64,000 nucleotides of DNA from an uncultured Streptosporangiaceae bacterium (GCA_964412845.1 CAYPQM010000002.1:14497-78496), one strand, 5' to 3'. Positions 6,477 through 32,638 are shown, counted from the stretch's first letter. The notes: generated by a model from the letters alone, not told the origin. Program-made: numbers and translations.

Positions 6477-6811
6477 GGCCGACTGCCGTTCGTGATCGAC
6501 GGTGCCTGCCGCCGCTGGATCGAGCCGTGGATGTGCTCGCCGATGACACCGACGAGGGCCGCGACATACTCGCCGACCAGGTAGTCGGTGACGGTCTCCC
6601 GCCGCCGCAGTTCGGGCAGCAGGTGCGGGAGGTAGTGACCCAAGTGCAGCAGGATCTTGGCGACGTGCTCCTCGGGGACGTCGGGCAGCTCCTGGCGGAG
6701 GACGGCGGCGAGGCGCGATGCGGGATCGGCCAGGGTGTCGGCCATGGCCCGGCGTCGGCGCAAGTTGTCGCGGACGGCGATGGCGAGGGCGTCGGTGGAC
6801 CGCTCGGGCAT
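6473..6811 (-). CDS. Hypothetical protein (112 aa)
   Basis: MPERSTDALAIAV... is the C-terminal portion of track ORF 6473..7153. Confidence 0.65.
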   Translation of the reverse strand: MPERSTDALAIAVRDNLRRRRAMADTLADPASRLAAVLRQELPDVPEEHVAKILLHLGHYLPHLLPELRRRETVTDYLVGEYVAALVGVIGEHIHGSIQRRQAPSITNGSRP

Positions 6812-6813
6812 GA

Positions 6814-7674
6814 TCAGTCTCCTGTCGGGACAACAACGAGAGCGCCCAAGCGCTGTGCACACCGGTGATCGGCGATGCGCGTCAGCAGCTCGGCGGCGTC
6901 GAGTTCGTAGGGATCGGCGGGGCCGCCGAAGGGCCAGGCGCCGCAGGGATCGTGGCGGACGTAGGCATACGCGCGACCGTCGTCGTCGATGTCGCCGCGG
7001 ATGCTGAACTCGGCGGGCGCGAGCGCTTTCGCGGCCGGCGTCGCGCGGGCGCCGAGCTTGGCCAGGGCGATGAGTTCGCGCATCTCGCTGACCTTCAGGG
7101 TCTTGCGATCGGGGTCGCGTTCCCACGGTGTCGTGGCCGCGATGTGGTTCCAACCTGCGGCGGTGAAGACGTCGACGAACGTCTGGACTCGCGCGACGAC
7201 GTCGGTGTCGTCGTCGGGTTGCCCGGCGCCCATGGCTTCGCCGGCCGCCCGGTTGGCTGCGGCCTCGCCTGCCGTCGTACCGGTCCAGTCGGACCAGGTT
7301 CCGGTGGTTTCGTCGAGCACCTGGGTGTCGAAGCCCTCGACGGGCTCGGGGTCATCGCCGTCGCGGCCGGTGCCGATGAGCCACCAGGTGGTACGGACCC
7401 GGTACGTCCCGTACTGGTCGCCGGCGGGCCACCAATGGCGGTGCGGGTCATGGGCGAACCAGCAGCTCGCGCCCGGGGGCAGCGTTTCGCACTGGGCCGA
7501 GTGGCCCACCTCGTAGAGGTTGTGCAGGCCCGGGTCGAAGGGGTGGTCGCCCTGGAACAGCCGCAAGGTGTGCCAGGCGAAGGCCGCGCCGGTGCTGCTG
7601 GAGTAGCTGTCGTCGTCCTCGGCGGAAGCGCGCAGCGCCTTGACCACGTTCTCAGTGGGATTCGCCATGATCAC
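6814..7674 (-). CDS. Hypothetical phage protein (286 aa; alternative ATG at 7668)
   Basis: Track ORF with protein-like, Trp-rich composition. GTGA overlap with the DnaB-like stop. Confidence 0.7.
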   Translation of the reverse strand: MIMANPTENVVKALRASAEDDDSYSSSTGAAFAWHTLRLFQGDHPFDPGLHNLYEVGHSAQCETLPPGASCWFAHDPHRHWWPAGDQYGTYRVRTTWWLIGTGRDGDDPEPVEGFDTQVLDETTGTWSDWTGTTAGEAAANRAAGEAMGAGQPDDDTDVVARVQTFVDVFTAAGWNHIAATTPWERDPDRKTLKVSEMRELIALAKLGARATPAAKALAPAEFSIRGDIDDDGRAYAYVRHDPCGAWPFGGPADPYELDAAELLTRIADHRCAQRLGALVVVPTGD

Positions 7675-8555
7675 TCACCGGCCCTGGGCGTCTGCGCGTC
7701 AGCTGCGGTCGGGGAAACCGGTTCGGGATCGACCATGGGCACGATGCGTCCGAAGTGCCCCTGGAACGCGGCGGTCAGCACGGCTGTCGGACCGCTGCGA
7801 TGCTTGGCCAGGATCAGATCGACCTCACCGAGGCGCGGGGTGTCGCGCTTGTCGGTGTCGGGGCGGTGGACGAGGATCACGAGGTCCGCGTCGTGTGCGT
7901 AGGTGTGGCGTGCCCCAAAGTCGGCCAGAGTGGGCGGGTCGTAGTAGTTCTTCGGCGTGCGGGGCGCCAGGTGAGTGGTCACGATGACGTGCATCTGGCG
8001 GTTGATGGCCCAGGCCTTCAGGAGGTGGGATGCCGCTGCGGTCCGCTCGTGGATCAGGCGCGGGTCGGAACCGGCGTCGAGCAGGTCAACGCCGTCGATC
8101 ACCAGGAGCTCGGGGGCGCCGTCGTCGTAGGCATCGAGGTACCTCTCGATGTCGGCGAAGGTGAGGGGGCTGTCGAGGATCAGCGGCAGCGGTTCGGCCT
8201 GGATGCGCTTGCGGGTCGCCTCCATCCGGGCGGCCTCGGCCGGCGCGGACACACCGGCGGTGATCCAGTGCATGGCCACCTGGGATTCGGCGGCAGCGAA
8301 ACGCCGAGCGGTGTCGTCGACCGAGCTCTGCAGGGCGGCGAAGTAGGTCTCGCGCTTGGCGGCAACGGCGGCGCGGGTGAGAGTGAGGGCGAGGGTGCTG
8401 CATCCGTGACTGGGCCGTCCGGCGATGACGGTGAGGTGTCCGGGCTGCAAGCCGCCCGTGAGGGTGTCGAGGTCGGGGAAGCCGGTAGGGATCCCAGCGG
8501 CGATGCTGTGGAGACCGTCGGTGACGGCATCGTGAATGTTGTGTGAGAGATCCAT
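7671..8555 (-). CDS. DnaB-like helicase C-terminal (RecA-fold) domain protein with a degenerate Walker A
   Basis: PTGFPDLDTLTGGLQPGHLTVIAGRPSHGCSTLAL (Walker A with Cys in place of Lys) and Walker B LLVIDGVDLL. Start is MDLSHN. Confidence 0.8.
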   Translation of the reverse strand: MDLSHNIHDAVTDGLHSIAAGIPTGFPDLDTLTGGLQPGHLTVIAGRPSHGCSTLALTLTRAAVAAKRETYFAALQSSVDDTARRFAAAESQVAMHWITAGVSAPAEAARMEATRKRIQAEPLPLILDSPLTFADIERYLDAYDDGAPELLVIDGVDLLDAGSDPRLIHERTAAASHLLKAWAINRQMHVIVTTHLAPRTPKNYYDPPTLADFGARHTYAHDADLVILVHRPDTDKRDTPRLGEVDLILAKHRSGPTAVLTAAFQGHFGRIVPMVDPEPVSPTAADAQTPRAGE

Positions 8556-9094
8556 CAGGCGTCCTTGGACTCGGGATTGATGTGGGATGCGCCAGCGGCA
8601 GCGCGCGCCGCGTCTGCGGCGGCCAGGTCGTACTCGGTCCAGCCATCGGCCCACTGGGCGGGGCCCATGGCGGCGCTGATCCAGTCGTTGCCCGGGAAGG
8701 CGTGTGCCTCGAAGCCGAACGCGCGCGGCTCGTTCTTGGCGGGATGCTTGGCCAGCACGACGCAGGAGAAGATCTCGAGCAGCTCGGGAGGCGTCCACGG
8801 CGCGCGCCGGATGTAGGTCTTGCCGTCCTCGAAGAAGTCCGGCGTCTCCGGGGCCGCGGCCTGCTCGGCCAGGGCGACCTTCCGCATGAAGCGCTCGCTG
8901 ACGTCAGCAGGAGTGCGCGCTCGGATCGCCAAGGCCTCCGGGGAGCCGAGACTCGACGCGGCGAGCAGCTCATCGAAGTCATCGACGGCGGCGCGGAGCG
9001 TCTTGGCCGGGAGCTCGAACAACTCGGACTCGGGGTAGGCGTCCAGCCAGCCGCGGATCTCTTCGATGGCGGTCGACGGGTCCGTGGCCGCCAT
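8555..9094 (-). CDS. Hypothetical protein (179 aa)
   Basis: Track ORF. TGATG overlaps at both ends. Confidence 0.7.
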   Translation of the reverse strand: MAATDPSTAIEEIRGWLDAYPESELFELPAKTLRAAVDDFDELLAASSLGSPEALAIRARTPADVSERFMRKVALAEQAAAPETPDFFEDGKTYIRRAPWTPPELLEIFSCVVLAKHPAKNEPRAFGFEAHAFPGNDWISAAMGPAQWADGWTEYDLAAADAARAAAGASHINPESKDA

Positions 9095-14767: not shown

Positions 14768-14934
14768 TCGGCGTCCGGTGCGGCGGTCAGGGCGGTGTGC
14801 TGGGCGTCGGCGGCGCGGAGGCGCTCGTAGGCGTTGGGAACCGCCGCCAGGAGCTCGGTCAGGTCGGCGGGTGTCCGGGGCTGCCACTCGACCAGCAGGC
14901 CGTCAGGGGCGCGGTGTCGTGCGCGACCGGTCAT
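14764..14934 (-). CDS. Possible small protein (56 aa)
   Basis: Hand translation MTGRARHRAPDGLLVEWQPRTPADLTELLAAVPNAYERLRAADAQHTALTAAPDAE. ATGA overlaps at both ends. Confidence 0.4.
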   Translation of the reverse strand: MTGRARHRAPDGLLVEWQPRTPADLTELLAAVPNAYERLRAADAQHTALTAAPDAE

Positions 14935-15224
14935 GATCGTCGGGTCCTGTCGTCGTCGGGGGCCGGCCAGTGGCGGCCGATGACGCGGTCGACGCGCTGG
15001 TCGGGCCGGTGGGCATGGCGGAGTGCTTCGGCTTGGAGGCGGCGGGCGCGGACGTCCCGCAGGTTCGGGATGGGCAGCGCGACCGCCGCGGCGTAGAGCG
15101 CGCCGGCGAGAAGCCCGAGGAGAACGCTGCCTGTGAGCAGTGCTGCCAGCGCGAAGGCGGTGGCGAACACGGCGACGTCCCGGGCGCGCGCGCCGAAGCC
15201 GGGCCAGGAGCGGCGGGGCGTCAC
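14931..15224 (-). CDS. Membrane protein (97 aa), GTG start
   Basis: V159 of track ORF 14931..15698. Hydrophobic core VAVFATAFALAALLTGSVLLGLLAGALYAAAVAL. GTGA overlap. Confidence 0.5.
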   Translation of the reverse strand: MTPRRSWPGFGARARDVAVFATAFALAALLTGSVLLGLLAGALYAAAVALPIPNLRDVRARRLQAEALRHAHRPDQRVDRVIGRHWPAPDDDRTRRS

Positions 15225-15706
15225 GGCTGGTTCCTCCGCGCAGCGGTCCTGGCCGCCGTTTCGGGCTCGGGTTGGGTTTCCCACTGGGCCATCAGCAGGT
15301 TTCGGGCTCTGCTCGCCGTGGCGGCGTTCGCCACGATGGTGACCCAGCCGATCACGAGGTAGACGATCGATGTCTTGGCGTGGCCGGTCAGTGCCTTGTA
15401 CATCGCCCAGGCCCACAGGAGGCTGGTGGCCGTTCCCGCGGCGTAGGAGAGGCGCTGCCAGACGCGAGGGCTCCGGCGGAGTCGTTGCACGCGCATCTGG
15501 GTGTGGTCTGAGAGGACGTCGGCGTTCCACAGGGCCACGGCCCAGAGCACGAAAGCGCTCGCCGCAGTGCCCAGCAGGATGGACGACGCCAGGGGGTGGG
15601 ATGTCAGCAGGGCTACGAGTGACGCGATGGCGGTCAGGACGGACGTGAGTGCGGCGATGCACATCACGACGCGCCAGACGAGGGCGCGGGTCGAGCACGA
15701 GTCCAT
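15221..15706 (-). CDS. Multi-pass membrane protein (161 aa)
   Basis: From MDSCSTRALVW. Four hydrophobic segments. Confidence 0.7.
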   Translation of the reverse strand: MDSCSTRALVWRVVMCIAALTSVLTAIASLVALLTSHPLASSILLGTAASAFVLWAVALWNADVLSDHTQMRVQRLRRSPRVWQRLSYAAGTATSLLWAWAMYKALTGHAKTSIVYLVIGWVTIVANAATASRARNLLMAQWETQPEPETAARTAARRNQP

Positions 15707-15780
15707 GGGGATGCTCCGGGGTTCCGGCGGGGAGAGCGCCGGGGCGGCATGTGCCGCCCCGGCGCCGGTGGCGGGGTGGA

Positions 15781-16200
15781 TCAGTCGGCGACGGTGCGGA
15801 CCTCGTCGGCCATCTCGCGCTGGCGGCCGCACTGGTAGGTGCCGGGGACGAACTGGAAGGCGCCGTGCTCCGGGTGGAGCATGAACGCCTCGGAGCCCTC
15901 GGGGACGCGCAGGGTGCCGAGCGCCAGGCCGCCGTTGTTCGGGGCGGGCTCGTAGTAGATCGGTCCGTTGCCGTGCAGGCTGTGGGTGTTGCCGCCGTTC
16001 TCGCCGGCGACGACGGCGACGCCGTCGGCCGGGACGGGCTCGGTGCCCTCGGCGATCACGGGCAGGTCGGTGCCGATGCGCAGGATGCTGACGTCGCCCT
16101 GGCAGGCCGCCGTGGTCACGACGGGGATGGCGGCCTCGAGGTCGAGGTGCTCCAGGACGTCGACGCCGGTGGCGTCGGTCAGCTCGGCGAGTGTGGTCAT
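15781..16200 (-). CDS. Hypothetical protein (139 aa), beta-rich
   Basis: Track ORF with ..CQGDVSILRIG.. and GENGGNTHSLHG. Family not identified. Confidence 0.75.
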   Translation of the reverse strand: MTTLAELTDATGVDVLEHLDLEAAIPVVTTAACQGDVSILRIGTDLPVIAEGTEPVPADGVAVVAGENGGNTHSLHGNGPIYYEPAPNNGGLALGTLRVPEGSEAFMLHPEHGAFQFVPGTYQCGRQREMADEVRTVAD

Positions 16201-16264: not shown

Positions 16265-17551
16265 TCAGCGCCGGTGCTCCAGCGCTGCGTACTGTTCGCG
16301 GGTCCAGCCGAAGGACCAGGCCGCGGCCGCGACTGGGTCGGCGAAGTGGCCGGGGACGGTCAGGCCGAAGCGGCGGCGGGTACCGTCGCGCTCGGTGGAA
16401 CCGTTGGTACACAGAAGAACGCGCACGTGGGCCCGGTAGACACGGCTGGGTACGTCGTACAGCGCGAGTTCCTGGCCCGGGTTGCCGGGGTCCGGGACGG
16501 GCAGGCCGACGGGCACCATGGCAGCCTGGTCGATGAACCGGTCCCAGCCGAGGCGTTCGATGGCAACGCGTCGGATCTCGGTGTTGCGCTCGGCCAGGAT
16601 CTTGTCGCTGGGCCACTCGGGGCCTTCGATGAGGTCGGCTGGGACTTGGGTGCCGTGCCAGGCGTGGATGCCCCATCCGTCGCGGTAGGCCACGGCTGGG
16701 CCCTTGTCGGCGTGAAGCTGTTGCTGATCGTCCAAATGGATGGACTCGGGTCGGTCGCAGATCACGACGGTGTCCTGGAAGGGCCACCAGGGGCCGGCGT
16801 TGCTGGCGATCAGCATCTCCGCGTGGAGCGCCGGCTTGTTGGGCTCGAACTTCGCCGGCGGAACCCCGTCGATCAGGGGCCCGCTGAGACGCGACCGGTT
16901 CCACGGCATGGGCAGGTACTCGGACATCTCCCTGGCTCGCCGCCGGTCCTCGGCTCCCATTCGCGCGATGAGCTCGCAGCGGGTCAGCCTTTCGGCATCG
17001 AACTGCCCCGGGTGCACGCGGAGTCTGCGGAGTGCGTAGTAGAGATCAGCGTCTCTGGCTGATCGAAGGTCGAAGCCCACCTGAAGAGTAGTCTCGCGAT
17101 TCGGAATGACCGCGTTTGTGAGCTGGGCTCCGATGGGCCGGATGAAGTCGGCCGCGAGCATGCCTGAGACCCTGCTGGCCCACCAGACATTTTCGGTGTT
17201 GTAAAAGCCCTGTCGTTCGTGTGGTGGCAGGAGTACGTCCCAGGGCAGCGGCTGGTCGTGCGCGAGGAGGCATTTTTTGACGAGGCGGACGGCGTCGGCG
17301 GGCGAGGTGGCCCATTCGATCCAGGGCTGTCGCTGCTCGCGGGCCCGGTAGAAGTCGCTGATCCCGATCTCGGCCAGCTGCCGGTTGGCGGGCTCGGTGG
17401 ACAGACCCCAGGTCCGCCACGTCCGGCTGAGTTCCTGGGCCCGGGTCGCCGGATCCAGGTAGCGGTGAAGAGGCACCCACGCCTCGCGGGCCGACCAGTA
17501 CGGCGAGAGGGGCGGCCGGGTCGAACTGTTGGGGATCGGTTCCGACGTCAT
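16265..17551 (-). CDS. Uncharacterised-family protein, paralog 3 of 3 (428 aa; resembles DUF6745 from memory)
   Basis: Shares WGLSTEPANR, GPWWPF, CDRP, HADKGPAVAYRDGWGIHAWHGTQVP, RRVAIERLGWDRF, PVPDPGNPGQELALY and RRRFGLTVP...YAALEHRR with the two upstream genes. Confidence 0.85.
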   Translation of the reverse strand: MTSEPIPNSSTRPPLSPYWSAREAWVPLHRYLDPATRAQELSRTWRTWGLSTEPANRQLAEIGISDFYRAREQRQPWIEWATSPADAVRLVKKCLLAHDQPLPWDVLLPPHERQGFYNTENVWWASRVSGMLAADFIRPIGAQLTNAVIPNRETTLQVGFDLRSARDADLYYALRRLRVHPGQFDAERLTRCELIARMGAEDRRRAREMSEYLPMPWNRSRLSGPLIDGVPPAKFEPNKPALHAEMLIASNAGPWWPFQDTVVICDRPESIHLDDQQQLHADKGPAVAYRDGWGIHAWHGTQVPADLIEGPEWPSDKILAERNTEIRRVAIERLGWDRFIDQAAMVPVGLPVPDPGNPGQELALYDVPSRVYRAHVRVLLCTNGSTERDGTRRRFGLTVPGHFADPVAAAAWSFGWTREQYAALEHRR

Positions 17552-17590
17552 CAGGAGCCTCGATTCGGGTGGCGGGGGTGGCCGGCGGGT

Positions 17591-18760
17591 TCAGCGGCGA
17601 TGTTCCAGGGCTGCGTACTGCTCGCGGGTCCAGCCGAACGTCCAGGCGGCGGCTTCGACCGGGTCCGTGAAGCCTGCGGGGACGGTGAGACCGAACCGCC
17701 GGCGCGTGCCGTCGCGCTCGAGAGAGCCGTTCGTACAGACCAGAACGAGAACCGGCCTGTCGTAGATGCGGACGGCGGGGACGTAGAGGCGTAGTTCCTG
17801 GCCTGGGTTGCCGGGGTCCGGGACTGCCGGCCCGAGGGGCTGCAGGATGTCGGACTCGACGAAGCGGTCCCAGCCGATGCGTTCGATCGCAGCTCGGCGC
17901 ACCTCAACGTTCCGCTGGGTGAGAACCTGCTCGGGGGTCCAAGGCGGCCCTTCAATGAGGCTGGCCGGGACGACGGTGCCGTGCCAGGCGTGGACGCCCC
18001 AGCCGTCGGGGTAGCGCACGGCCGGACCGTTGTCGGCGTGGAGGCGCAGCTCAGGGTCGAAATGGATGGCTGTGGGGCGTTCGCTGATGATGACGATGCT
18101 TTCGAAAGGCCACCAGGGGCCGGCGCTTCGAGCGATCTGCAGCAGCGCGTGCCAAGCGCCGTAGTGCACCGCTGAGATGGATGCCTCTTCCTTCACCAGC
18201 TCCAGTTCGTAGCGGGCGAGAGCCTCGGCATCGAACTGGCCCGGCACGACGGCATGGCCCTTCATCCGCAGAGTGTGGAACGGGCCTAACGTCATGTTGG
18301 CGGTCAGGTCGGTCGCGGCCAGGACCTGTTCGCCGACCTGGCGGGCGGCTCGGAGCGGACGGAGCTGCTGTTGCACCAGTCCCCAGTTGATCCGGTGGTT
18401 CCGGCCAAGGACGTACAGCTCTGATTCGGGCGTGAGATCTTCGCGGGCGCACGGCCACGCTGTGCCCTGCGCCACGGCGTAGTCCGCTGCTCTGTGCGCC
18501 GCGTGGGGCGAGTCGGCCCAGATGATGCGCGGTTTCTGTCTGCCGCCCAGCTGCCTGAAGGCATAGAGGTCGATGATCGCCCGTTCGGCCGCGTCCCGGT
18601 CGGCGGGGTCCGTGGACAATCCTCGCTTGGCCCACCACGCGGCACTGTCGAGGTACCTGAGCGTGTCGTCGGAGTACTCGCGGAGGTACTTGGCGAAGTA
18701 CTGCTCGACCAGCGGCGGGACCAGCTGGTCGGGTTGCGTCTCGGGCTGTGGGTCTGTCAT
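17591..18760 (-). CDS. Uncharacterised-family protein, paralog 2 of 3 (389 aa)
   Basis: Same motif set along the full length (GLSTDPADR, GPWWPF, SERP, HADNGPAVRYPDGWGVHAWHGTVVP, ...YAALEHRR). Confidence 0.85.
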   Translation of the reverse strand: MTDPQPETQPDQLVPPLVEQYFAKYLREYSDDTLRYLDSAAWWAKRGLSTDPADRDAAERAIIDLYAFRQLGGRQKPRIIWADSPHAAHRAADYAVAQGTAWPCAREDLTPESELYVLGRNHRINWGLVQQQLRPLRAARQVGEQVLAATDLTANMTLGPFHTLRMKGHAVVPGQFDAEALARYELELVKEEASISAVHYGAWHALLQIARSAGPWWPFESIVIISERPTAIHFDPELRLHADNGPAVRYPDGWGVHAWHGTVVPASLIEGPPWTPEQVLTQRNVEVRRAAIERIGWDRFVESDILQPLGPAVPDPGNPGQELRLYVPAVRIYDRPVLVLVCTNGSLERDGTRRRFGLTVPAGFTDPVEAAAWTFGWTREQYAALEHRR

Positions 18761-18825
18761 GGGTCCTCGCTTCGGATGGTGGAGGCTTCACGGTCAGCGC
18801 GCGCCGTGACTGGCGCCGCGGTGGA

Positions 18826-20148
18826 TCAGCGGCGGTGCTCCAGGGCGGCGTAGTCGTCGCGATCCCAGCCGAAGGTCCAGGCCGCGGCTTCGACCGGGTC
18901 GGTGAAGCGGGCCGGGACGGTCAGACCAAAGCGCCGACGCGTGCCATCGCGCTCCTCGGAGCCGTTCGTGCACAGCAGGACACGTACGGGGTTGCGGTAG
19001 ATCCGGCCGGGCACGTCGTACAGCGCGAGCTCCTGGCCGGGGTTCCCCGGGTCCGGGACAGGGGCACCCACGGGCGCCAGCTTCGCGTCTGCGATGAACC
19101 GGTCCCAGCCGATGCGCTCGACGGCCGCGCGGCGGACCTCGGTGTTGGGGTGGGTCAGGATCTGCTTTGCGGTCCAGCCGGGCCCGTCGATCAGGTCGGC
19201 GGGGACAGGCGTGCCGTGCCAGAAGTAGACGCCCCAGCCGTCCGGGTAGACCACGGCGGGGCCGTCCTCGGCGTGAGGACGCTCCTGCTGGTCCATCAGG
19301 ATGCCGCTGGGGCGCTCGCAGGCGATGACCAGCTTGTCAAAGGGCCACCAAGGTCCGGCGCTGCGCGCGATTTTTGCCAGGGCGTCCAGGGCAGCGCTGC
19401 GGGGTCGGTTCGGGCGGGCCCGCTTGCCGACCTCGTGCAGAGCGAAGCTCTCGGCGTCGAACTGCCCGGGGATCAGCGGAGGGCCGTCCTTGCTGGCAAA
19501 GCGGACGAGCGTTCCTGCGGGCGACGTTGCCAGTGCTGCGCGGAAGACCTCGCGGCCGATCTGACCCACCAGCTGCAGGTTGGCCGTAGTCCCGAGCATG
19601 AACCTCCAGAGAACGTCGGTTCCCCCGACCAGCGCCTTGTATTCGTTGTCAGGCATGAGCTCGTCGCGTGACAGGCTTCTGGCATCAGCAGCGGCGATCA
19701 CGGCCTTGTAGATTCCGACTGCGGCACGGGGTGACTGCGCCCAGATGATCTGGGACGGCTGTGGCAGCCCGCGCGCCTGGTACACCTTGCGGATACCGGC
19801 CTCGGCCGTGGCACGATCGGCGGGCTCGGTCGACAGCCCGGCTTTCGCCCACCGCGCGGTGGTGCTCGTTGAGATGCTCACGTCTCCGAAAGCCTCCACA
19901 GTGCTGAAGAACACGGGCAGGTCGAATTCCACGGAGAAATCCATCGTCGAGGGCAGCAGCGCACCTCTGTGATCGACGTTCCATGACACCGGCGTGTTGA
20001 CGCCCGGGATCAGAACGGGTGGTGACGGGCTCACCGCGCCCGCGTGCTTCCGGGAGCGACGCCGGTGGCGGTGCAGGCCGACGGCCCCGGCGGCGGCACC
20101 GGCCGCTGCTGTGACGAAGGGCGCGACAGTGAGGATGGCGGTGATCAT
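18826..20148 (-). CDS. Uncharacterised-family protein, paralog 1 of 3, with an N-terminal TM anchor (440 aa)
   Basis: Start is MITAILTVAPFVTAAAGAAAGAV (residue 100 of track ORF 18826..20445), followed by the same motif set. Confidence 0.8.
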   Translation of the reverse strand: MITAILTVAPFVTAAAGAAAGAVGLHRHRRRSRKHAGAVSPSPPVLIPGVNTPVSWNVDHRGALLPSTMDFSVEFDLPVFFSTVEAFGDVSISTSTTARWAKAGLSTEPADRATAEAGIRKVYQARGLPQPSQIIWAQSPRAAVGIYKAVIAAADARSLSRDELMPDNEYKALVGGTDVLWRFMLGTTANLQLVGQIGREVFRAALATSPAGTLVRFASKDGPPLIPGQFDAESFALHEVGKRARPNRPRSAALDALAKIARSAGPWWPFDKLVIACERPSGILMDQQERPHAEDGPAVVYPDGWGVYFWHGTPVPADLIDGPGWTAKQILTHPNTEVRRAAVERIGWDRFIADAKLAPVGAPVPDPGNPGQELALYDVPGRIYRNPVRVLLCTNGSEERDGTRRRFGLTVPARFTDPVEAAAWTFGWDRDDYAALEHRR

Positions 20149-20282
20149 CAGGGTCCGATCAGCTGGTCGACGCAGCAGGCGAGAGCAACGCCGCCGAGGG
20201 CTGCGATGAGGACGATCAGGGCAAGCAGCCCGGCTGCGGCTGCCAGGCGTCCGGCGGCCCACGCGGCCCGGCGCGCGGTCAC
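20148..20282 (-). CDS. Possible 44-aa single-TM peptide, GTG start
   Basis: VTARRAAWAAGRLAAAAGLLALIVLIAALGGVALACCVDQLIGP. GTGA overlap with the LuxR stop, and its stop abuts the paralog-1 ATG. Confidence 0.45.
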   Translation of the reverse strand: MTARRAAWAAGRLAAAAGLLALIVLIAALGGVALACCVDQLIGP

Positions 20283-20749
20283 GGCGTCCTGCCGGGGCGG
20301 CTCGCGGTCGCGCGGCGGTGAAACTCGACGCGGCGCATGACGGCGCGGGCGTGCTCGCGCACGGGCGTGGGTGTCGGCGAGTTGGCGACGGCACCGACGA
20401 CGCCGAGCAGCCCGTCGACGAGCCGGGCCGGCAGCAGGACGGCATTCCCGCCAGTTGGCGGCCGCGGCACCGGGACGGGGATGGGAACGGGAGCGGGCGT
20501 CTCGGGCTGCTGGGCTGGCCCCGGGGGTGCCGGGATGGTGCCGAGGCCGATGGCGATCGCAGCGGCCTCGGTGCGGCTGGCGGCGCCGAGCTTGAGGCAG
20601 ATGCGGCTGAGGTGCGACTTGACGGTGAAGAACGCGATGCCGAGCTCGGCGCCGATCCGGGCGTTGGAGTGGCCGGCGGCCACCAGCACGAGGACGTCGA
20701 TCTCGCGGGTGGACAGCGGGGAGCCTAGGCGGGGCGTGCGGCGCTTCAT
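20279..20749 (-). CDS. LuxR/GerE-family HTH regulator with an N-terminal HTH, Pro-rich linker and unknown C-terminal domain
   Basis: LSTREIDVLVLVAAGHSNARIGAELGIAFFTVKSHLSRICLKLGAASRTEAA. Preceded by a 157-bp non-coding gap. Confidence 0.85.
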   Translation of the reverse strand: MKRRTPRLGSPLSTREIDVLVLVAAGHSNARIGAELGIAFFTVKSHLSRICLKLGAASRTEAAAIAIGLGTIPAPPGPAQQPETPAPVPIPVPVPRPPTGGNAVLLPARLVDGLLGVVGAVANSPTPTPVREHARAVMRRVEFHRRATASRPGRTP

Positions 20750-20906
20750 CGCGGAAGGTCCCTTCGCGCGCCCTGGACGGTCGTGTCACGGGCGGATGGG
20801 TTTGGGCCGGTACGCCTGGGCCGGACCGGTGTCGGCGCGCCTTCTGCGTGGCTTGTGGGCGTTTGGCCGTAGGCGGAGCCATTCGTCAGTTCGTTTGATG
20901 ACGTGA

Positions 20907-21359
20907 TCATGCTGCTGCGCCTGTGGGGTATCCGGGCCCGGAGAGGCTGGAGGCGTCGTCGGGGACGGTCATGTCGGGGGTGGCGAGCAGCCGGACGTGT
21001 ACGGCGAAGGGGAGGAGTTCTTCGTCGCCGGTGGTGGTGTTGCGGAGGTGGACGTCGACGATCTGGGGGGCGTTCTCCCAGTTGGTGTCAGGGTTGTCGC
21101 GGGTGCTGGGTGTGCCGATGACCTGGCATTCTTCGCCGTTGATGCGGACGAGGTACTTGTCCCGGATGTCGGTGATGCCCATCGGTACCCAGGGGCGGCG
21201 TTCGGGTTCGGGTTCGTCGTCTGGGGTGAGGGTGTTGCGGAGGACGGCGAGGGTGCGGCGGATGGCGTCGGCGAGGCCTTCGGTGAGTTCGAGGGCGGCG
21301 TCGAGGATGGTGGTGGCGATGCCGGGGACTGCGCGGGTGGTGGCTTGCAGCAGGTTCAT
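20907..21359 (-). CDS. Hypothetical protein (150 aa)
   Basis: Track ORF. Confidence 0.7.
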   Translation of the reverse strand: MNLLQATTRAVPGIATTILDAALELTEGLADAIRRTLAVLRNTLTPDDEPEPERRPWVPMGITDIRDKYLVRINGEECQVIGTPSTRDNPDTNWENAPQIVDVHLRNTTTGDEELLPFAVHVRLLATPDMTVPDDASSLSGPGYPTGAAA

Positions 21360-21676
21360 GGTCGGTCCGGGGGGTCGGGGGTTGGTCTGGCGGCGTCGAG
21401 TCGGGAGGGGTGGAGCGCGGTCATGGGGCGGCCGGTGACGGTTTGGCAGCCGAGTCCGGGGGCGGCTTTGCAGAAGGGGCAGCGGACGGCTCGGGCGCCG
21501 CCCTGTCGTGTAGGGATGGCCGGGGTGCCGTCGGGGGCTGGTATGGGGTTGGCAAGGGGCGGTCTGTGAGGCTTAACGACGTTGGTGCGCGCAAGGGCGC
21601 GGATGCCGTCTGACATGCGGCGGGCGTCTTCCATGGCGCGGCGTTCGGCGTCGGGCTCAGTGTCGGTGTTGGTCAC
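21356..21676 (-). CDS. Small protein with a CxxC-x-AAPG-x-C...H zinc-ribbon-like motif
   Basis: VRCPFCKAAPGLGCQTVTGRPMTALHPSR. The same motif type occurs in the 63335.. gene. Confidence 0.7.
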   Translation of the reverse strand: MTNTDTEPDAERRAMEDARRMSDGIRALARTNVVKPHRPPLANPIPAPDGTPAIPTRQGGARAVRCPFCKAAPGLGCQTVTGRPMTALHPSRLDAARPTPDPPDRP

Positions 21677-21753: not shown

Positions 21754-22827
21754 CTATGGGCCGTGGAGGCTGGGCATGCGGCTGCGGGCGCAGGCGGCGG
21801 CGCGGGTGATGACCAGCGGGGTGGGTGCGTTGGTGACGCCTCGGCGGGCGAGGTCGGCTTCGACTTCGGCCTGGAGGGCGGCGCCGAAATCGTCGAGTTG
21901 GCCAAGGAGCCGGCGGGCGGCGTTGTACTCCTCGTCGGTGATCACGATGTCGTCGAGGTTTTCCACAGACGTGATCGTTTCGACAAGTGAGGTGGTCGCC
22001 TTGGGTGAGTTGGTTGGTGGTAGTTGGTCAAGGTTGGTCACCGGCAACGGGTTGCCGGAACTGTGGCAACCCGTTGCCGGAAGGCTGGCAACGGGTTGCC
22101 GGAAGGGGTCGTCGCCCGGGGCGCCACTGGCGGCAACGGGTTGCCGGGAGCCTGGACCGTCGGCGGGGTTTTCCACAGGGCCTTGCGGCACCGCGTTGCC
22201 GGAAGCGGCCGTGTTGTCCACAGGGCGTTCCGGCACCGTGTTGCCGGTAGCGTGGATCCCGGGGTTCTGTTCCGGCATCCCGTTGCCGGGAGCGGGCTCG
22301 TCGTTGCCGCGCTGTTCCGGCACCGCATTGCCGGTAGGGGTCTTGGGCTCGCGGTCGATCGGCATCGCCCGGGCTGGCAGCGGCTTGCCCTGGAGCTCGG
22401 CCAGGAAGGGCCGGAGCGCGAGCGGTTTCGGCCGGATGAGCTTGCCGTCGTCGTCGCGCTCGCAGGGCTGTCCGTCGCGGCCGATGGGCTTGCCCTGGGG
22501 GTCGCGGCGCATCGGGATCGCGGGGTAGCCGGGGCCGGGCAGCGTCAGCTGGTAGGTGTCCGGGACGCCGAGCTTCCTGCCGTACTTGGTGATCTCGATC
22601 AGCCCGAGTTCGGTCAGGACACGGATGTTGTCGCGGAGGTAGCGGACGTCGGAGATGATCGCCTCGTCGGCGAGCGTCTCCTCGCTGACCTTGACGTTGG
22701 AGCCGTCGGGGTCCGCGTAGGTGGCGAGGATCCCGGCGACGGCCTTGACGATCTGGGGCAGGTCGGAGCGTCGGATCCAGACGGCCCACATGTAGTTGCC
22801 GACCGGCTGGTGCTTCAGGTCAGCCAT
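21754..22827 (-). CDS. Replication-initiator-like protein (N-terminal winged-helix domain) whose gene contains the iteron array
   Basis: N-terminal wHTH-like region. The middle encodes repetitive TGNAVPE/SGNAVPQ/TGNTVPE peptides from the DNA iterons, a lambda O-like arrangement. Confidence 0.75.
   Translation of the reverse strand: MADLKHQPVGNYMWAVWIRRSDLPQIVKAVAGILATYADPDGSNVKVSEETLADEAIISDVRYLRDNIRVLTELGLIEITKYGRKLGVPDTYQLTLPGPGYPAIPMRRDPQGKPIGRDGQPCERDDDGKLIRPKPLALRPFLAELQGKPLPARAMPIDREPKTPTGNAVPEQRGNDEPAPGNGMPEQNPGIHATGNTVPERPVDNTAASGNAVPQGPVENPADGPGSRQPVAASGAPGDDPFRQPVASLPATGCHSSGNPLPVTNLDQLPPTNSPKATTSLVETITSVENLDDIVITDEEYNAARRLLGQLDDFGAALQAEVEADLARRGVTNAPTPLVITRAAACARSRMPSLHGP
22041..22334. 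repeat. Iteron array: 8 copies of the palindromic 16-18-bp motif CCGGCA(A/C)CNNGTTGCCGG; candidate replication origin
   Basis: Copies begin near 22041, 22065, 22087, 22131, 22186, 22230, 22272 and 22317, with spacings of about 22, 22, 44, 55, 44, 42 and 45 bp. A lower-GC GTTGGT-repeat stretch (22005..22040) is adjacent. Confidence 0.85.
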
Positions 22828-23588: not shown

Positions 23589-24073
23589 GGGGTAGCTCCG
23601 ATCGTCCAGATGCGGATGAGCACACCCGGAGCGGCTGGCGCGAGGGGGTGCTGGCCCGGGTAGTACTTGCCGGTGTCGCGGTACTCGACGACCTGGGCGT
23701 CGTCGAGCCACGCCAGGCCCTTGAGCGCGTCCTCGGTGGAGCGCAGCAGCTTGGACAGGTCCGGGGTGCAGCTGGGCAGCACGCGGCCCTTCGGCATGCG
23801 CTGGGGCGGCTGGAGCGTGAAGATCATGGAGGCGGCCAGTGCGCCGGCCAGGGGCGCGCAGTTGGCAGCGGCGTCAGCAACAGCCGCGCGCCAGGGCTTC
23901 ACCTTGGCCGAGGACTCGACGAGGATCGGCGTGCGGCCGCCGTTCTTCGCGGCCCGCGTCCCGACCGCCTTCTTCGAGCCCTGCGGGCCGGGCGTGCCGC
24001 TCACGGCGAGCTGGATGGCGGGGTCGGTGTCCAGGTTGAGGCACCGGGCGCAGCAAGTGGTCGGGAAGTTCAT
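23585..24073 (-). CDS. rusA: RusA-family Holliday junction resolvase
   Basis: [29 protein letters not shown] matches E. coli RusA [30 protein letters not shown]. Confidence 0.9.
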   Translation of the reverse strand: [162 protein letters not shown]

Positions 24074-25812
24074 GCTGTCACCAGCTCGCGGTCAAGCTCG
24101 ATCCCGTGGATGATCTCGGAGAGCGCCGAGACGATGACCTCGGCGGGCGGGGGCGTGACCGCGTTGCCGTAGAGCCTGGTAGCGACCTCAGCGCTGATGT
24201 CGTCGGGCATCACGAAGTCGTCGTCGAAGGCCATGCCCCTGTGCGACTCGTCGATCTTCATCATCCGGAACAGCACGGACTCCAGGCCCATGCGCTCGGC
24301 GGTCCTGGCCGCCTCGGCGCCGAGCCGGGCGATAGCATCCGTGTGCCGCTTGTCGTCGTCGGCCCGGCCCGCGTCGTCCTTCTTCAGCTCCCGGGTCTTC
24401 AGGGTGATCTCCTGGATCCGCTCGACGGACTGGATGATGTGCCGCGGGTCGACCTCCAAGCTGTTGTGGGCGCGGGACAGGGCGTAGCGGTCGCGGGTGG
24501 TCAGGGTGCCCATGGGCTCGTCGGCGGGCGCGGCGTTGCCGTTGCCGTAGTAGGGCACCATCAGGTCGAGCGTCGGCTGCTGCATCAGGCCGATGTGGTT
24601 GCCGTTCGCGGTCAGGGTCGGCATCGGTGCGGCGGTCTTGCGGGCGCCGTTCAGGGAGCCCCCGCCGCGCATGGTGATGAGCATCGGCGGGATCGTGACG
24701 CTGGCGGTGCCCGTGTGCTGCCGGGCCCAGGCGGCCGATCTGCCTTCGGTGTCGTGCGCGATTTCGATGGGGGGCACAGCGATGCCGTCGGACTCGCGGG
24801 TGGTCCTGGTCGGCATGGGCTCGGAGACGGGCGTCGGGCTGGTCCGCCAGGTGCCGCCCGCCGGGACGAGGAAGGGCTCTCCGTACTTGACGACACCCAT
24901 GCCGATGCGGGCCATGGTCATGGGGGCGAGCGGCGCCTCGCGGTCCCCGATCGCGGTGATCGGCTTGGTGAAGTCGAGGGCTGTCGCCGCGCCGATGACT
25001 TCGGGGTGGACGACCTGTCCGCGGCAGTCGCTGTTCGGGCAGCGGTAAACGTACTGTCCGCTCTTGATCCCGTAGACGCCCATATCCTTGCGCGGGTCCT
25101 TGAACACCTGCATCGCCCACACTCGGCGGTCGCAGCGCGGGCACCAGGCGCGGGGCCGCAGCCACTTGTCCCAGTCGGGGTCGCGGCCGAGGGCTTCGAG
25201 CCAGTACGCCAGGTACGCGCGGTCGCGGGACTGCGGGCAGCGCTTGGTACGCACCGGGACGGCGTGTGCCGAGTTCAGCGCGATCAGCTTGGTCTTGTAG
25301 CCGAGCATGTGGAACCGGTGCAGGTACTTGTCCCACTCGGCCCACTTGCGGACCTGCGGCACGTTCTCCACGACGCCAGCCAGCACCGGAAATCCGGTCA
25401 GCCACATGGCTTCCAGATACAGGGGCACCTCGGTCATCAGCGCGCGGGAACGGATCCCCGTCTCGGAGATCTCCGGCTCCAGCCCGGGGATGGCGTACTG
25501 GTTGATCTTGTCGAACCACATCGGGCGGCCGGCGGCGTCGGTCCAGTGCGGGCAGGCCGGGGAGTCCCACTTGAACGCGCGCGGCTTGCGCTTGCTCACG
25601 CAGGTCGTCTGGATGTCGGTCTGGAGGTGCTCGGCGTCCGGGAAGTTCAGCGCATGCACGCGGATCGCGTGCGGACTGTGGTTGATGCCCTCAACGACCC
25701 TGATGCCGGGAACCTTCCGGAGCGCCTGGGAGGAGCCGCCGGCACCGCAGAAGCCGTCTCCGGCTTCGATGTCGCCGTCGCGGTCGCGGCCACAGGTCAG
25801 CAGCGAGGTCAT
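24070..25812 (-). CDS. DNA (cytosine-5) methyltransferase (580 aa)
   Basis: Motif I GDGFCGAGGSSQAL, catalytic-Cys region WDSPACPHWTDAAG and motif VI VVENVPQVRKW. Confidence 0.85.
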   Translation of the reverse strand: MTSLLTCGRDRDGDIEAGDGFCGAGGSSQALRKVPGIRVVEGINHSPHAIRVHALNFPDAEHLQTDIQTTCVSKRKPRAFKWDSPACPHWTDAAGRPMWFDKINQYAIPGLEPEISETGIRSRALMTEVPLYLEAMWLTGFPVLAGVVENVPQVRKWAEWDKYLHRFHMLGYKTKLIALNSAHAVPVRTKRCPQSRDRAYLAYWLEALGRDPDWDKWLRPRAWCPRCDRRVWAMQVFKDPRKDMGVYGIKSGQYVYRCPNSDCRGQVVHPEVIGAATALDFTKPITAIGDREAPLAPMTMARIGMGVVKYGEPFLVPAGGTWRTSPTPVSEPMPTRTTRESDGIAVPPIEIAHDTEGRSAAWARQHTGTASVTIPPMLITMRGGGSLNGARKTAAPMPTLTANGNHIGLMQQPTLDLMVPYYGNGNAAPADEPMGTLTTRDRYALSRAHNSLEVDPRHIIQSVERIQEITLKTRELKKDDAGRADDDKRHTDAIARLGAEAARTAERMGLESVLFRMMKIDESHRGMAFDDDFVMPDDISAEVATRLYGNAVTPPPAEVIVSALSEIIHGIELDRELVTA

Positions 25813-26275: not shown

Positions 26276-26848
26276 TCAGATCGCGTCGGCCGGCAGCAGG
26301 CGGGCCAGGCTTCGGACGGCTCGGTATTGCAGGGTCTTGACGGCGCCTTCCTGCTTGCCCATGATCTCGGCGGTCTCGGTGACGGACTTCTGTTCGAGGA
26401 AGCGCAGCGTGACGCACATCTGCTGCTGCTCGTTGAGCCGTTTGACGGCGCTGCGGAGTACGCAGTTGTCCAGGTACGTCACGATGGCGTCCTCGGTCGA
26501 CGGCTCCAGCTCATCGCCGTCGAGCATTTCGCCGGTCGAGACCTCCCGGCGGTGGCGACTCGACTTGAAGTTGTCCGCGATGAGGTTGCGGGCGATGGTG
26601 ATGAGCCACGCTCCGAGGTCCTTGCCCTGCCAGCTGAAGGTGGTGATCCGGCACAACGCGCGGACGAACGTCTCGCTGGTGAGGTCTTCGGCCAGCGGAC
26701 GGGTGGCGACGCGGTAGTAGATGAAGCGGAACACCGTGTCGCGGTAGGCGACATACAGCTCGCCGAAGGCTTCTCGGTCGCCGGCCTGGGCAGCCGTGAC
26801 GATCTCCACCATTCGCTCGTGCGCGAGCACCTGGGTGCGGTCAGTCAT
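26276..26848 (-). CDS. ECF-type sigma-70 family RNA polymerase sigma factor
   Basis: Region 2 is FGELYVAYRDTVFRFIYYRV...AEDLTSETFVRAL...GAWLITIARNLIAD. Region 4 is RFLEQKSVTETAEIMGKQEGAVKTLQYRAVRSL. Confidence 0.9.
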   Translation of the reverse strand: MTDRTQVLAHERMVEIVTAAQAGDREAFGELYVAYRDTVFRFIYYRVATRPLAEDLTSETFVRALCRITTFSWQGKDLGAWLITIARNLIADNFKSSRHRREVSTGEMLDGDELEPSTEDAIVTYLDNCVLRSAVKRLNEQQQMCVTLRFLEQKSVTETAEIMGKQEGAVKTLQYRAVRSLARLLPADAI

Positions 26849-28414: not shown

Positions 28415-29353
28415 TTACCAGCGCTCCCAGTTGTAGGCGTTCATCACCCACGGCGGCAGCGGCAGGCGTTCGATCCGGTCGGGGTAGGCAGGCCATTGGC
28501 CGGACTCGGTGCACTCCCGGTAGAGGCGGATAGCCTTGCGGTTCAGCTCGCGGCCGATCTGCATCGCGTCGGGGTCGGGCCGGACGCAGCGCACGTAGTA
28601 GGGCGCCGTCTTCTCCTGGCAGACGAGGAGGAAGTCGATGTCGTCCTTGTCGGCCAGGCCGAGCTCGACGGCGCCGTTTTCGTACCAGTCGGCCTGCTGG
28701 TGCCAGCCCTTCTCGTGCATCGCCTTACTCAGCGACAGGTCGTCGATGGCGTGGCAGCTCTTGAGGTCAACGATGACGAGACGTCCGCGACGCGTGAAGA
28801 TCATCGAGTCGGGCCGGGCCCGGAGCATGACGCCGTGCTCCTCGTCGCGCCAGAACAGCGAGTGCTCGACCATGGCGTCGTCGACGGCGAACAGCGGGCC
28901 GGCCTCAGGATGGCGACGGACGATGTCGGCCATCGCCTTCATCCGGAGATACTCGTGCTTCAGCAGCGTGATCACGCCGCTCGCACGGTTCGCCTGCTCC
29001 TTCTCCTGCGTGTCCTTCTTCCGCCGGTTCTGCTCGTCGAGCATGACGACTTCGGGGTCGCCGCCGAACAGCTCGCTGTGCAGCGCGGTCCCGAACTCCA
29101 TCTCGGGGGTCGCGATGCGGCCGTGGAGGCGGTCGTAGTCGAAGCGGGCCGGGGTGCCCGGCGGGAGGATCCGCCGGGCGCCGGTGGAGGACAGGGAGCC
29201 GCCGGCGACGGGGTCGGCGTGGTACTCGCGCAGCGACATGCGCGCGCGGATGCCGGGCTCGGTGATCGGTTCGCCGCGGTACTCGGCCAGGAACTGCGCC
29301 GGGGCGTCCGAGGCGGCCGGGTCGATGGCGAGGATGTCAGCGATGACGGTCAC
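28415..29353 (-). CDS. PD-(D/E)XK exonuclease, RecE/exonuclease VIII-like (312 aa, GTG start)
   Basis: GTALHSELFG..., RARPDSMIF...LVIVDLKSC (D...D/E-x-K) and ...GWHQQADWY. GTGA overlap upstream. Confidence 0.75.
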   Translation of the reverse strand: MTVIADILAIDPAASDAPAQFLAEYRGEPITEPGIRARMSLREYHADPVAGGSLSSTGARRILPPGTPARFDYDRLHGRIATPEMEFGTALHSELFGGDPEVVMLDEQNRRKKDTQEKEQANRASGVITLLKHEYLRMKAMADIVRRHPEAGPLFAVDDAMVEHSLFWRDEEHGVMLRARPDSMIFTRRGRLVIVDLKSCHAIDDLSLSKAMHEKGWHQQADWYENGAVELGLADKDDIDFLLVCQEKTAPYYVRCVRPDPDAMQIGRELNRKAIRLYRECTESGQWPAYPDRIERLPLPPWVMNAYNWERW

Positions 29354-29649
29354 AGTCCTCGTCCCTTCGACCAGTCGGTGAGGCCGATGGTCTGCTCCCA
29401 CGGCAGATGCGTCGGCCCGGCGGGGTGGTTGACGTGCGGCGGGTACTGCCGTCCCGCCTGCCGCGTCTCGTCATCGACCTGGGTGCCGGCGGCGATGGCG
29501 GCCGCGATCGGCCGCCAGGCCTCGGCGGCCTCGGCCGCGAGTCGCTCGGCGTCGTCATGGGCGCCGCCCCAACCGCCGGTGTCGGTCAGCGACACGGCGT
29601 ACGCGGCCTGCTCGGCCGCCGCATGGGCGCGCAGGAACGTGGCGCTCAC
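29350..29649 (-). CDS. Hypothetical protein (99 aa), GTG start
   Basis: V76 of track ORF 29350..29874. GTGA overlap. Confidence 0.55.
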   Translation of the reverse strand: MSATFLRAHAAAEQAAYAVSLTDTGGWGGAHDDAERLAAEAAEAWRPIAAAIAAGTQVDDETRQAGRQYPPHVNHPAGPTHLPWEQTIGLTDWSKGRGL

Positions 29650-31658: not shown

Positions 31659-31869
31659 TGGATGCAATCTCGCATCGCATTGCGTGGATGCAATCTACGC
31701 CGCGTATCCATGCAATGCAACTGGAGCTGGTATTGATACGTGTTCGCAGGTGGCGTGCGTGCGCCCGTTGGCGTGATTTCGCTCTCGCGGTCGGATGCGC
31801 GCGCGGCTAGCCTGACCGCTGGGCGGGTGCGGCGCGGATTTGCGCCCGGGTACCGGGCTCAGATTGCAT
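31659..31869. promoter_or_regulatory. Immunity-region operators: TGGATGCAATCT x2 (31659, 31685), ATGCAAT (31710) and inverted AGATTGCAT (31861)
   Basis: Repeats read directly in the lower-GC divergent intergenic region between the Cro-like and repressor genes. Confidence 0.6.
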
Positions 31870-31903
31870 GTATGCGATGCACGCACGGCGCGAGAGGTCA
31901 CGT

Positions 31904-32499: not shown

Positions 32500-32555
32500 C
32501 TTTGCTGAGCTCCTGAACTGCATGTTTGCAGTCAGGGGCTTTACACTTTCGGAAT

Positions 32556-32576: not shown

Positions 32577-32638
32577 CTCCGAGTGAGCGCCATACGAAAG
32601 CCGGTCCACCGACGGTCCACTCGTCGTACGTTCCAAAT

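Follow-up and report, generated by a model that had tools for sequence, protein, structure and literature searches.

A DUF6745 and g139 gene pair conserved across Actinomycetota, with triplicated DUF6745 copies in the early arm of an actinophage

Introduction

Tweety gp54 is a mycobacteriophage protein whose unique N- and C-terminal parts lie around 40–48 AAxx repeats. The repeat number differs in Che8 (gp57) and PMC (gp51), and the gene is non-essential and located in the early right arm (PMC2884959). Mutants that escape the (p)ppGpp-synthetase-like defense of Phrann gp29/gp30 have an altered number of gp54 repeats, which gave rise to the idea that gp54 is a tunable counter-defense protein (PMC9262239). 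Here, we analyze a gene block in a 64,000-nt stretch of DNA from an uncultured Streptosporangiaceae bacterium (GCA_964412845.1, CAYPQM010000002.1:14497-78496), referred to below as the window, with positions counted from its first letter. In this block, three tandem genes for proteins of the Pfam family DUF6745 (PF20530) are followed by the gene for a 139-residue protein, termed g139. Phage-borne relatives of these DUF6745 proteins are built like gp54: N- and C-terminal parts flank arrays of tetrapeptides, each encoded by 12 nt, in which two positions are constant and two vary, the repeat number varies between close relatives, and the genes are found in the early region. Unlike gp54, the window genes carry no repeats, and counter-defense activity is known for gp54 alone, against Phrann gp29/gp30 (PMC9262239).

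DUF6745 is unmentioned in the searchable literature. The window proteins resemble other PF20530 proteins of Actinomycetota in two respects: alignments with chromosomal homologs from Streptomyces, Amycolatopsis, Nonomuraea, Actinomadura, Nocardia, and others reach a coverage of 89–100%, and a gene for the 139-aa partner comes next. They differ in being present as three tandem copies, more than one copy having been found in none of 80 chromosomal loci and in one questionable viral locus. They also differ in their setting, a phage early arm in which the first copy is membrane-anchored and coupled to a GerE regulator and a 44-aa peptide. This regulator shares a GerE-type helix-turn-helix (HTH), with strong domain-level matches in Pfam and NCBIfam, with the small stand-alone LuxR/GerE regulators. 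In contrast to these, its HTH is N-terminal instead of C-terminal, it has no known sensor domain, and it also resembles sigma-factor region 4 (PHROG 3282).

Results

DUF6745 and g139 form a conserved gene pair

The first-pass annotation of the window, made from the sequence alone, described a self-contained operon headed by a LuxR regulator. Comparison with other loci places the conserved unit further downstream, among the following genes.

18826-20148, minus strand: DUF6745 paralog 1, 440 aa, membrane-anchored (PF20530, E = 3.2e-35)
17591-18760, minus strand: DUF6745 paralog 2, 389 aa, soluble (PF20530, E = 6.3e-35)
16265-17551, minus strand: DUF6745 paralog 3, 428 aa, soluble; an additional stretch of ~30 aa is inserted at the start of the C-terminal region (PF20530, E = 4.4e-33)
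15781-16200, minus strand: g139, a His-rich, beta-barrel-like protein of 139 aa (PHROG 27831, a PHROG of unknown function, E = 2.6e-17)

The first pass had likened the family to DUF6745, and the Pfam search identified it as such. The three paralogs scored 114.8, 120.8, and 121.7 bits against a gathering threshold of 27 bits and matched positions 25–203 of the 206-position model. The match corresponds to the C-terminal ~190 aa of each protein.

To collect relatives, we used 73 viral DUF6745 loci from IMG/VR and the best 80 of 469 matching stretches from a DUF6745 scan that covered 185,579 species of bacteria and archaea, each represented by a single genome. These best 80 stretches, which are the chromosomal loci analyzed throughout, all belong to Actinomycetota. 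A g139 homolog was present on the DUF6745 strand in 71 of the 73 viral and 74 of the 80 chromosomal loci (145 of 153 together). It lay directly downstream of the DUF6745 gene in 66 viral and 73 chromosomal loci, with median gaps of ~45 and ~20 nt, respectively, and the gene order was occasionally inverted. We defined the cassette as a DUF6745 gene with a co-oriented partner gene no more than ~150 nt away; in the window, g139 starts 64 nt past the stop codon of paralog 3. Clustering of all neighboring open reading frames (ORFs) revealed no further family shared beyond genus-level synteny. Because adjacency is near-obligatory across ~150 loci and no other neighbor is conserved, the conserved functional unit is the DUF6745-g139 pair and not the LuxR-headed operon, which is a lineage-specific elaboration. 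The window has three DUF6745 genes per g139 gene, whereas relatives outside this phage clade have one.

The two proteins also occur as a natural fusion in P0360, a cluster representative of 545 aa. In addition, the g139 domain is fused to an HNH_3 endonuclease in three representatives and to a weak oligonucleotide-binding (OB) fold match in one (P0243, P0250, P0252, and P0249); the HNH fusions may stem from homing endonucleases that inserted next to a conserved gene and whose stop codon may have been lost. In individual phages, too, the pair can be followed. In the Mycobacterium prophage prophiGD102-1, g139 is immediately upstream of the DUF6745 gene gp38 (g139 profile, E = 4.5e-48). It lies two genes upstream of the DUF6745 gene in Microcystis phage MaMV-DL02 (E = 5e-13) and forms an unannotated ORF just downstream of that gene in a Manatee Spring siphovirus (E = 1e-11).

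One viral contig, L045, carries a tandem duplication of the g139-DUF6745 pair at positions 5072-8228, with a start-to-start distance of 1589 nt. Its copies have equal tblastn identity and the same start of the repeat array, and the duplication is either a recent event or an assembly artifact caused by the repeats.

The pair is widespread in Actinomycetota and scarce among deposited phages

A word-indexed search returned at least 679 relatives of DUF6745 from many actinomycete genera, labeled only as "DUF6745 domain-containing" or "hypothetical." The pair is found in actinomycete chromosomes, plasmids, prophages, and some cyanophages. Nine plasmid records match DUF6745. Of 50,697 deposited phage records, four match DUF6745 and one matches g139; a nucleotide search with the whole block found no match in this set. 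As read from their sequences rather than from database matches, the chromosomal neighbors are ordinary genes: ATP-binding cassette and major facilitator superfamily transporters, two-component systems, and an acyl-CoA oxidase-like protein. Shared flanking clusters reappear at as many as nine chromosomal loci, mostly of Amycolatopsis. The neighbors of viral DUF6745 genes include genes for RecT, RecE, exonuclease VIII, RuvC, Erf, and the anti-repressor Ant; those in prophiGD102-1 are Gam, ERF, and a RepA-like initiator.

The three paralogs are diverged and maintained duplicates

The gene order given in the first pass (LuxR regulator, 44-aa peptide, and paralogs of 440, 389, and 428 aa) was reproduced, with all genes on the minus strand. 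The gaps between the paralogs, put at 40–65 bp, measure 65 nt between the first and second and 39 nt between the second and third. As had been noted, the proteins align end to end (~50% amino acid identity) and share the listed motifs. The 3' ends had been estimated by eye to be 75–80% identical at the DNA level, and diverged duplication was concluded; the conclusion stands, with a corrected figure of 72–78% for the 3' halves. Within the C-terminal domain, the copies share 72–73% DNA and 65–69% amino acid identity. The most divergent part is a middle segment (residues 91–198 of paralog 2), with 22–25% amino acid identity. DUF6745 proteins are conserved in an N-terminal part (W..GLST.PADR..AE...Y..G..P.I.W..SP) and in the C-terminal domain, with a fast-evolving middle between them. 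In an alignment of 44 sequences, Trp-43, Trp-81, Pro-85, and the C-terminal motifs are conserved, and invariant Arg/Glu clusters are formed by NxEVRRxAIE and ERDGTRRRFG.

All three genes look coding, because the G+C content at third codon positions (GC3) is 0.83–0.84 in each. Whole-gene ratios of nonsynonymous to synonymous substitution (dN/dS) against the orthologs on a related contig, L161, were 0.33 for copy 1 and 0.19 for copy 2, indicating that these two copies are maintained under purifying selection. Decaying pseudogenes, a possibility that the first pass had named as a refutation, are ruled out by the intact ORFs, by GC3, and, for copies 1 and 2, by these ratios. The same layout on independent contigs from other samples rules out an assembly artifact, as the first-pass annotation had held.

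Only the first copy has an N-terminal transmembrane anchor, in line with the original reading. It consists of a hydrophobic segment (residues 1–23) followed by RHRRRSRK, and the anchor is conserved in the related contigs L160 and L161. Because this positive stretch comes after the helix, the DUF6745 body of paralog 1 is predicted to be cytoplasmic.

An AlphaFold2 (AF2) model of paralog 2 had a predicted local distance difference test score (pLDDT) of 84 and a predicted template modeling score (pTM) of 0.80. The middle segment was its least confident part (pLDDT 56–73), compared with >90 in the C-terminal domain. Foldseek found no related fold for this model in the PDB (best E = 1.3) and matched only other DUF6745 proteins in BFVD. 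A sequence-profile search against PDB chains returned nothing for DUF6745, and the isolated N-terminal and middle segments had no Pfam match at E ≤ 5. NCBIfam gave no match for the three paralogs or g139, and PADLOC-DB 2.0 gave none for the paralogs, g139, or a 203-aa ORF at 15221-15832 that contains the gene for a 161-aa membrane protein. Altogether, the paralogs matched no virion, replication, defense, or solved-structure family in Pfam, PHROG, NCBIfam, PADLOC, the PDB, or Foldseek searches. The hidden Markov model search proposed in the first pass therefore returned a DUF only, and the statement that nothing in the sequences matches virion or replication functions was borne out. Their description as "enzyme-like" was not, as neither sequence nor fold, including the suggested Foldseek comparison, matched any enzyme.

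g139 is a small, His-rich, barrel-like protein

The AF2 model of g139 has nine strands and a pLDDT of 90. Residues invariant among its homologs are QGD, His-73, the HxEH motif (His-109, Glu-111, and His-112), Tyr-122, Gln-127, and a C-terminal Asp. The best Foldseek matches in the PDB include quercetinase, pirin, and other cupins at chance level (E = 0.8–3, probability ≤ 0.07), and the His motifs, HxxH and HxEH, are not the canonical cupin motifs. g139 had no Pfam match, and a sequence-profile search against PDB chains gave matches at chance level only. In a wider profile search for its relatives (2797 cluster representatives, 901 proteins), none lent g139 a Pfam domain or an informative name.

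Phage-borne relatives carry tetrapeptide arrays in the middle segment

Arrays of tetrapeptide repeats (≥24 aa) were present in 66 of 74 viral DUF6745 genes versus 4 of 80 chromosomal ones. The phage-borne proteins consist of the N-terminal motif region, an array of four-residue units (such as GAVR-DAVD..., DQVY-GQVR..., GQLW-DQLR..., or SAVG-SAVD...), and the DUF6745 domain. The unit can be written as [Q/A/S][V/L][G/R/D/W/Y/H][D/G/S/A], with variable positions rich in Gly, Arg, Asp, Trp, Tyr, and His. Arrays span 27–250 aa, equivalent to 7–62 units of 12 nt. Examples are gp38 of prophiGD102-1 and, among the IMG/VR loci L005-L076, the loci L015, L025, L050, L051, L065 (L065:5191-5868), and L054. 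Three prophages with flanks that are 98–99% identical have arrays of 170, 27, and 239 aa, one of which comprises 56.5 copies of the 12-nt unit. We considered whether the arrays could be acidic DNA mimics and rejected this, as their net charge is only about −0.05 per residue.

In IMG/VR, 25 contigs end inside the DUF6745 gene (for example L006, L008, L012, L029, and L046), and 21 of these 25 contig-end ORFs start within the repeat array. The arrays therefore break short-read assemblies.

The window paralogs share with the array-bearing proteins the N-terminal motifs, the C-terminal domain, the partner gene, and a neighborhood of early replication and recombination genes. They differ in the middle, where they have a non-repetitive segment of 80–110 aa with at most one or two degenerate units. 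This segment occupies the same position as the arrays of the relatives.

The regulator, peptide, anchor, and tandem copies are additions of a small phage clade

The remaining elements of the block and its surroundings are as follows.

20750-20906, minus strand: intergenic gap of 157 nt upstream of the regulator gene, a candidate promoter/operator region
20279-20749, minus strand: stand-alone GerE/LuxR-type regulator, 156 aa (Pfam GerE, PF00196)
20148-20282, minus strand: single-pass membrane peptide, 44 aa, hydrophobic at residues 6–44
15221-15706 and 14931-15224, minus strand: two membrane-protein genes downstream of g139, past a hairpin

The HTH of the regulator had been read as N-terminal, and the Pfam search places GerE at residues 11–66 (E = 5.4e-17; 61.6 bits, cutoff 23.5). 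The HTH is followed by a Pro-rich linker and an uncharacterized C-terminal part of ~90 aa. Neither Pfam nor NCBIfam revealed a receiver, autoinducer-binding, or other sensor domain; the NCBIfam matches cover the HTH only and are all far below family cutoffs. The PADLOC-DB 2.0 matches are likewise weak and at the level of the HTH (E ~ 1e-3). The protein also matches PHROG 3282, "sigma factor" (E = 3.8e-10). It is conserved in the relatives L159, L160, and JGI 3300047160.

The peptide is coupled to the regulator through GTGA, as the first pass described: its GTG start overlaps the regulator stop, and its own stop overlaps the start of paralog 1 (TGATG). In relatives with 67–88% DNA identity it is kept at 44–45 aa, with the pattern GRLA..LLALI.L.AA..G...D.LIGP.

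The 157-nt gap had been called non-coding. It contains a mechanical ORF of 54 aa, and gene callers leave the gap uncalled on near-identical contigs. No sigma-70 consensus promoter was found in a scan of positions 13–23 kb of the window, no Rfam match was found in the gap, and the RNA of the gap folded no better than shuffled sequences. A block reading ACCCATCCGsCCGyGACA at ~20785-20803 within the gap is common to the relative with 67% identity.

At the other end, a perfect 14-bp GC-rich hairpin (15736-15765, minus strand; inverted repeat I20, 100% complementary) lies 16 nt past the g139 stop codon. A 91-nt RNA that includes the hairpin has a folding energy of −43 kcal/mol (z = −2.8 relative to shuffled sequences). 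The hairpin has no U-tail and is probably the 3' boundary or terminator of the block, as judged from its sequence. The first-pass annotation had extended the unit into a 139-aa beta-rich protein and two membrane proteins. The former belongs to it as g139; the membership of the two membrane-protein genes is doubtful, because the hairpin divides them from g139, and they are not conserved with the block elsewhere.

Four related contigs allow the block to be compared within its lineage. Identity to the window is 99.9% for L159 (JGI) and 88% for L161 (ENA), which has DUF6745 copies of 442 and 388 aa. L160 (JGI), at ~67% identity, encodes the GerE regulator, a 45-aa peptide, and a membrane-anchored DUF6745 copy of 429 aa. 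A fourth JGI contig encodes a GerE regulator of 174 aa, a 45-aa peptide, and DUF6745 copies of 436 and 415 aa. The synteny comparison proposed in the first pass thus found the LuxR linkage and the tandem copies in close relatives and not elsewhere; the regulator, peptide, membrane anchor, and tandem copies are linked to DUF6745 only in these few phages and are additions specific to a small phage clade.

Contigs L001 and L161, both from ENA sample ERZ27245402, have the same first base inside the regulator gene (window position ~20387). They are identical over 141 nt, which equals the assembler's k, and show ~88% identity beyond that point. Two block variants therefore coexist in one community.

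The block lies in the early arm of a temperate phage

The following genes define the surroundings of the block.

60876-62474: terminase large subunit
59334-60854: portal
53796-55160: major head protein
45706-48846: tape measure
40498-42102: endolysin
32522-34048, plus strand: integrase
31868-32353, plus strand: repressor-like gene
28415-29401, minus strand: exonuclease VIII, early arm, past the repressor
26276-26848, minus strand: RNA polymerase sigma factor (PHROG 1740, E = 1.5e-25), early arm, upstream of the block
24070-25812, minus strand: DNA methyltransferase, early arm
21754-22827, minus strand: replication-initiator-like gene (weak match), early arm
21356-21676, minus strand: phage zinc-finger protein, early arm
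7671-8798, minus strand: DnaB-like helicase, early arm, beyond the block

G+C content ranges from 64 to 73% per 2-kb window, and the large genes are nearly all on the minus strand. Because virion genes, an integrase, and a repressor-like gene occur together, the gene content identifies the window as a temperate siphovirus-type actinophage or prophage, in agreement with the temperate phage proposed earlier. The block is co-oriented with the early replication and recombination arm, between the initiator-like gene and the DnaB-like helicase, and distant from the integrase and repressor. With a sigma factor of its own, the phage probably runs its own transcriptional cascade, of which the GerE regulator may be a part.

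Discussion

Judging from sequence and gene order, we tentatively favor the possibility that the block is an early, host-directed recognition or counter-defense module. DUF6745 would serve as a recognition scaffold whose variable middle "arm" sets target specificity or geometry, and g139 would be its shared effector or cofactor, possibly metal-dependent. Made early in infection, the two proteins would act on a component of the host or of a rival phage, most likely in counter-defense or host takeover. The logic would be that of Tweety gp54, in which a change in repeat number retunes the protein against a prophage defense. In the lineage studied here, three paralogs, one of them held at the membrane, would broaden specificity in place of repeat-length variation, and the co-translated regulator and peptide would be lineage-specific accessories for control and localization. 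The first-pass annotation had offered superinfection exclusion, defense, or host takeover as candidate roles. Takeover is plausible on the indirect support of the tetrapeptide arrays in phage-borne homologs, as is counter-defense, whereas exclusion or defense expressed in lysogeny is not favored by a position in the early lytic arm, far from integrase and repressor. A broader statement, which we regard as somewhat unlikely to hold in full, is that DUF6745 and g139 make up a widespread system of two components, not described before, that acts in phage-host conflict (counter-defense or defense). Its specificity would lie in a hypervariable arm set into a conserved scaffold, an arm that most phages would tune by slippage of the 12-nt units and that this lineage would diversify by triplication. 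By analogy, the same joint reading would make the system a non-homologous, independent counterpart of gp54 with one copy tethered to the membrane, and this part we hold with similar doubt.

Several observations weigh against such a role in conflict. The window paralogs (16265-20148) contain no tandem array, and the strongest hint therefore comes from relatives and not from this locus. The likeness to Tweety is one of design and genomic position only, and it is a likeness of the phage-borne relatives rather than directly of this locus: gp54 has no Pfam DUF6745 match, hhalign gave a probability of 0.2% for gp54 against DUF6745, and the g139 profile found no g139 in the Tweety region. On the missing Pfam match and the hhalign result, homology between DUF6745 and gp54 was rejected. 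On chromosomes, the gene is present once, lacks repeats, and is syntenic in several Amycolatopsis species, where its neighbors are ordinary metabolic genes; this pattern suits a housekeeping or accessory function in the cell more than a part in an arms race. The fusions of g139 to HNH and OB domains and the recombination-gene neighborhood could point to nucleic acid metabolism. Finally, the picture of N- and C-terminal parts as one body with a protruding arm is taken from a predicted model and rests only on its pTM of 0.80.

Some of the same features have been weighed for a defense expressed from the prophage, in which GerE would drive the block from its own promoter in lysogeny, the membrane peptide and the anchored copy would act at the envelope, the middle segments would sense invaders, and g139 would be the effector. 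A gap before the block and a hairpin after it make an independent transcription unit possible, the block has membrane components, hypervariable segments would suit sensors, and two block variants occur in one sample; the pair is also a self-contained two-gene cassette on chromosomes, plasmids, and prophages, as many defense systems are. We nevertheless consider this role unlikely. No PADLOC model matches DUF6745 or g139, and the sigma-70 scan found no promoter consensus. The chromosomal copies sit in conserved neighborhoods that are not islands, and copy 1 is predicted to have its DUF6745 domain on the cytoplasmic side. The block is also co-oriented within the early lytic arm at a distance from integrase and repressor, whereas prophage-expressed defense genes of mycobacteriophages usually lie near the immunity region.

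That early position, between the initiator-like gene and the DnaB-like helicase, would also suit an accessory of DNA replication, recombination, or modification. In such a pair, which would serve cellular as well as phage DNA metabolism, g139 would be a small catalytic barrel that depends on metal, and DUF6745 a binding subunit rich in Arg. Homologs adjoin RepA-like, Gam, Erf, RecT, RecE, and RuvC genes, and some g139 domains are joined to an HNH endonuclease or, by a weak match, to an OB fold. The invariant Arg/Glu clusters of DUF6745 and the invariant His and Glu residues of g139 would suit such a division of labor, as would the stable inheritance of the pair on Amycolatopsis chromosomes. 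Even so, we consider this role, too, unlikely, since neither protein resembles a nuclease, polymerase, recombinase, or modification enzyme in sequence or fold, and a hypervariable repeat arm and triplication would be unusual for a core factor of DNA metabolism. The HNH fusions may be homing endonucleases. The pair is missing from nearly all cultured actinophages (DUF6745 matches 4 and g139 matches 1 of 50,697 phage records) and is therefore dispensable for replication in general. The compact, tightly spaced cassette on chromosomes, plasmids, and prophages, with its occasionally inverted gene order, would also be compatible with a selfish element of the toxin-antitoxin or addiction type, in which one protein is toxic, the other neutralizes it, and this phage has gained extra paralogs. 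This is highly improbable given the natural fusion of both proteins in P0360, the three large genes per small partner, the syntenic, vertical inheritance within a genus, and the lack of similarity to known toxin or antitoxin folds and families in Pfam, NCBIfam, and Foldseek.

Within a family that is already catalogued, what is new here is the triplicated, repeat-less arrangement with a membrane-anchored first copy and a coupled regulator and peptide. The near-obligatory partner, the fusion, the repeat arm characteristic of phages, and the assembly breaks at the arrays are leads that we did not find in the searchable literature. Analysis of this locus gives three handles on DUF6745, namely an almost obligatory partner, a protein in which the two are naturally fused, and a hypervariable repeat arm specific to phages, and these open the family to experiments. 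Should the pair mediate phage-host conflict, it would constitute a new defense or anti-defense family in Actinomycetota, including antibiotic producers and mycobacterial pathogens, and "tunable repeat" proteins would be known from a second case, independent of Tweety gp54. The arrays also explain why many metagenomic viral contigs end in a DUF6745 gene, a caveat for the assembly of such phages.

Other genes of the window

Two adjoining small genes on the minus strand (5239-5661 and 5642-6079) encode proteins of 140 and 145 aa. The first matches the C-terminal domain of the RNA polymerase alpha subunit (PF03118, E = 1.1e-7); the second has no PHROG match and is similar by eye (LPRSYNALTN...IGQL). 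Going by these resemblances, the two may be tandem phage-encoded mimics of that domain.

Between the integrase and the lysis genes lie a 405-aa ORF (35507-36724, plus strand) with no PHROG match and a 495-aa XRE-type regulator (37284-38771, minus strand; PHROG 5823, E = 4e-55), which are possible cargo ("moron") genes. ARAGORN called a tRNA-Ala(GGC) at 62328-62409 on the plus strand, within the oppositely oriented terminase gene (minus strand), which is probably a false-positive call. A family-2 glycosyltransferase (PF13641, E = 2.4e-15) is encoded at 1882-3273 on the minus strand, at the far end of the early arm, and a phage glycosyltransferase is also mentioned in the Tweety paper.

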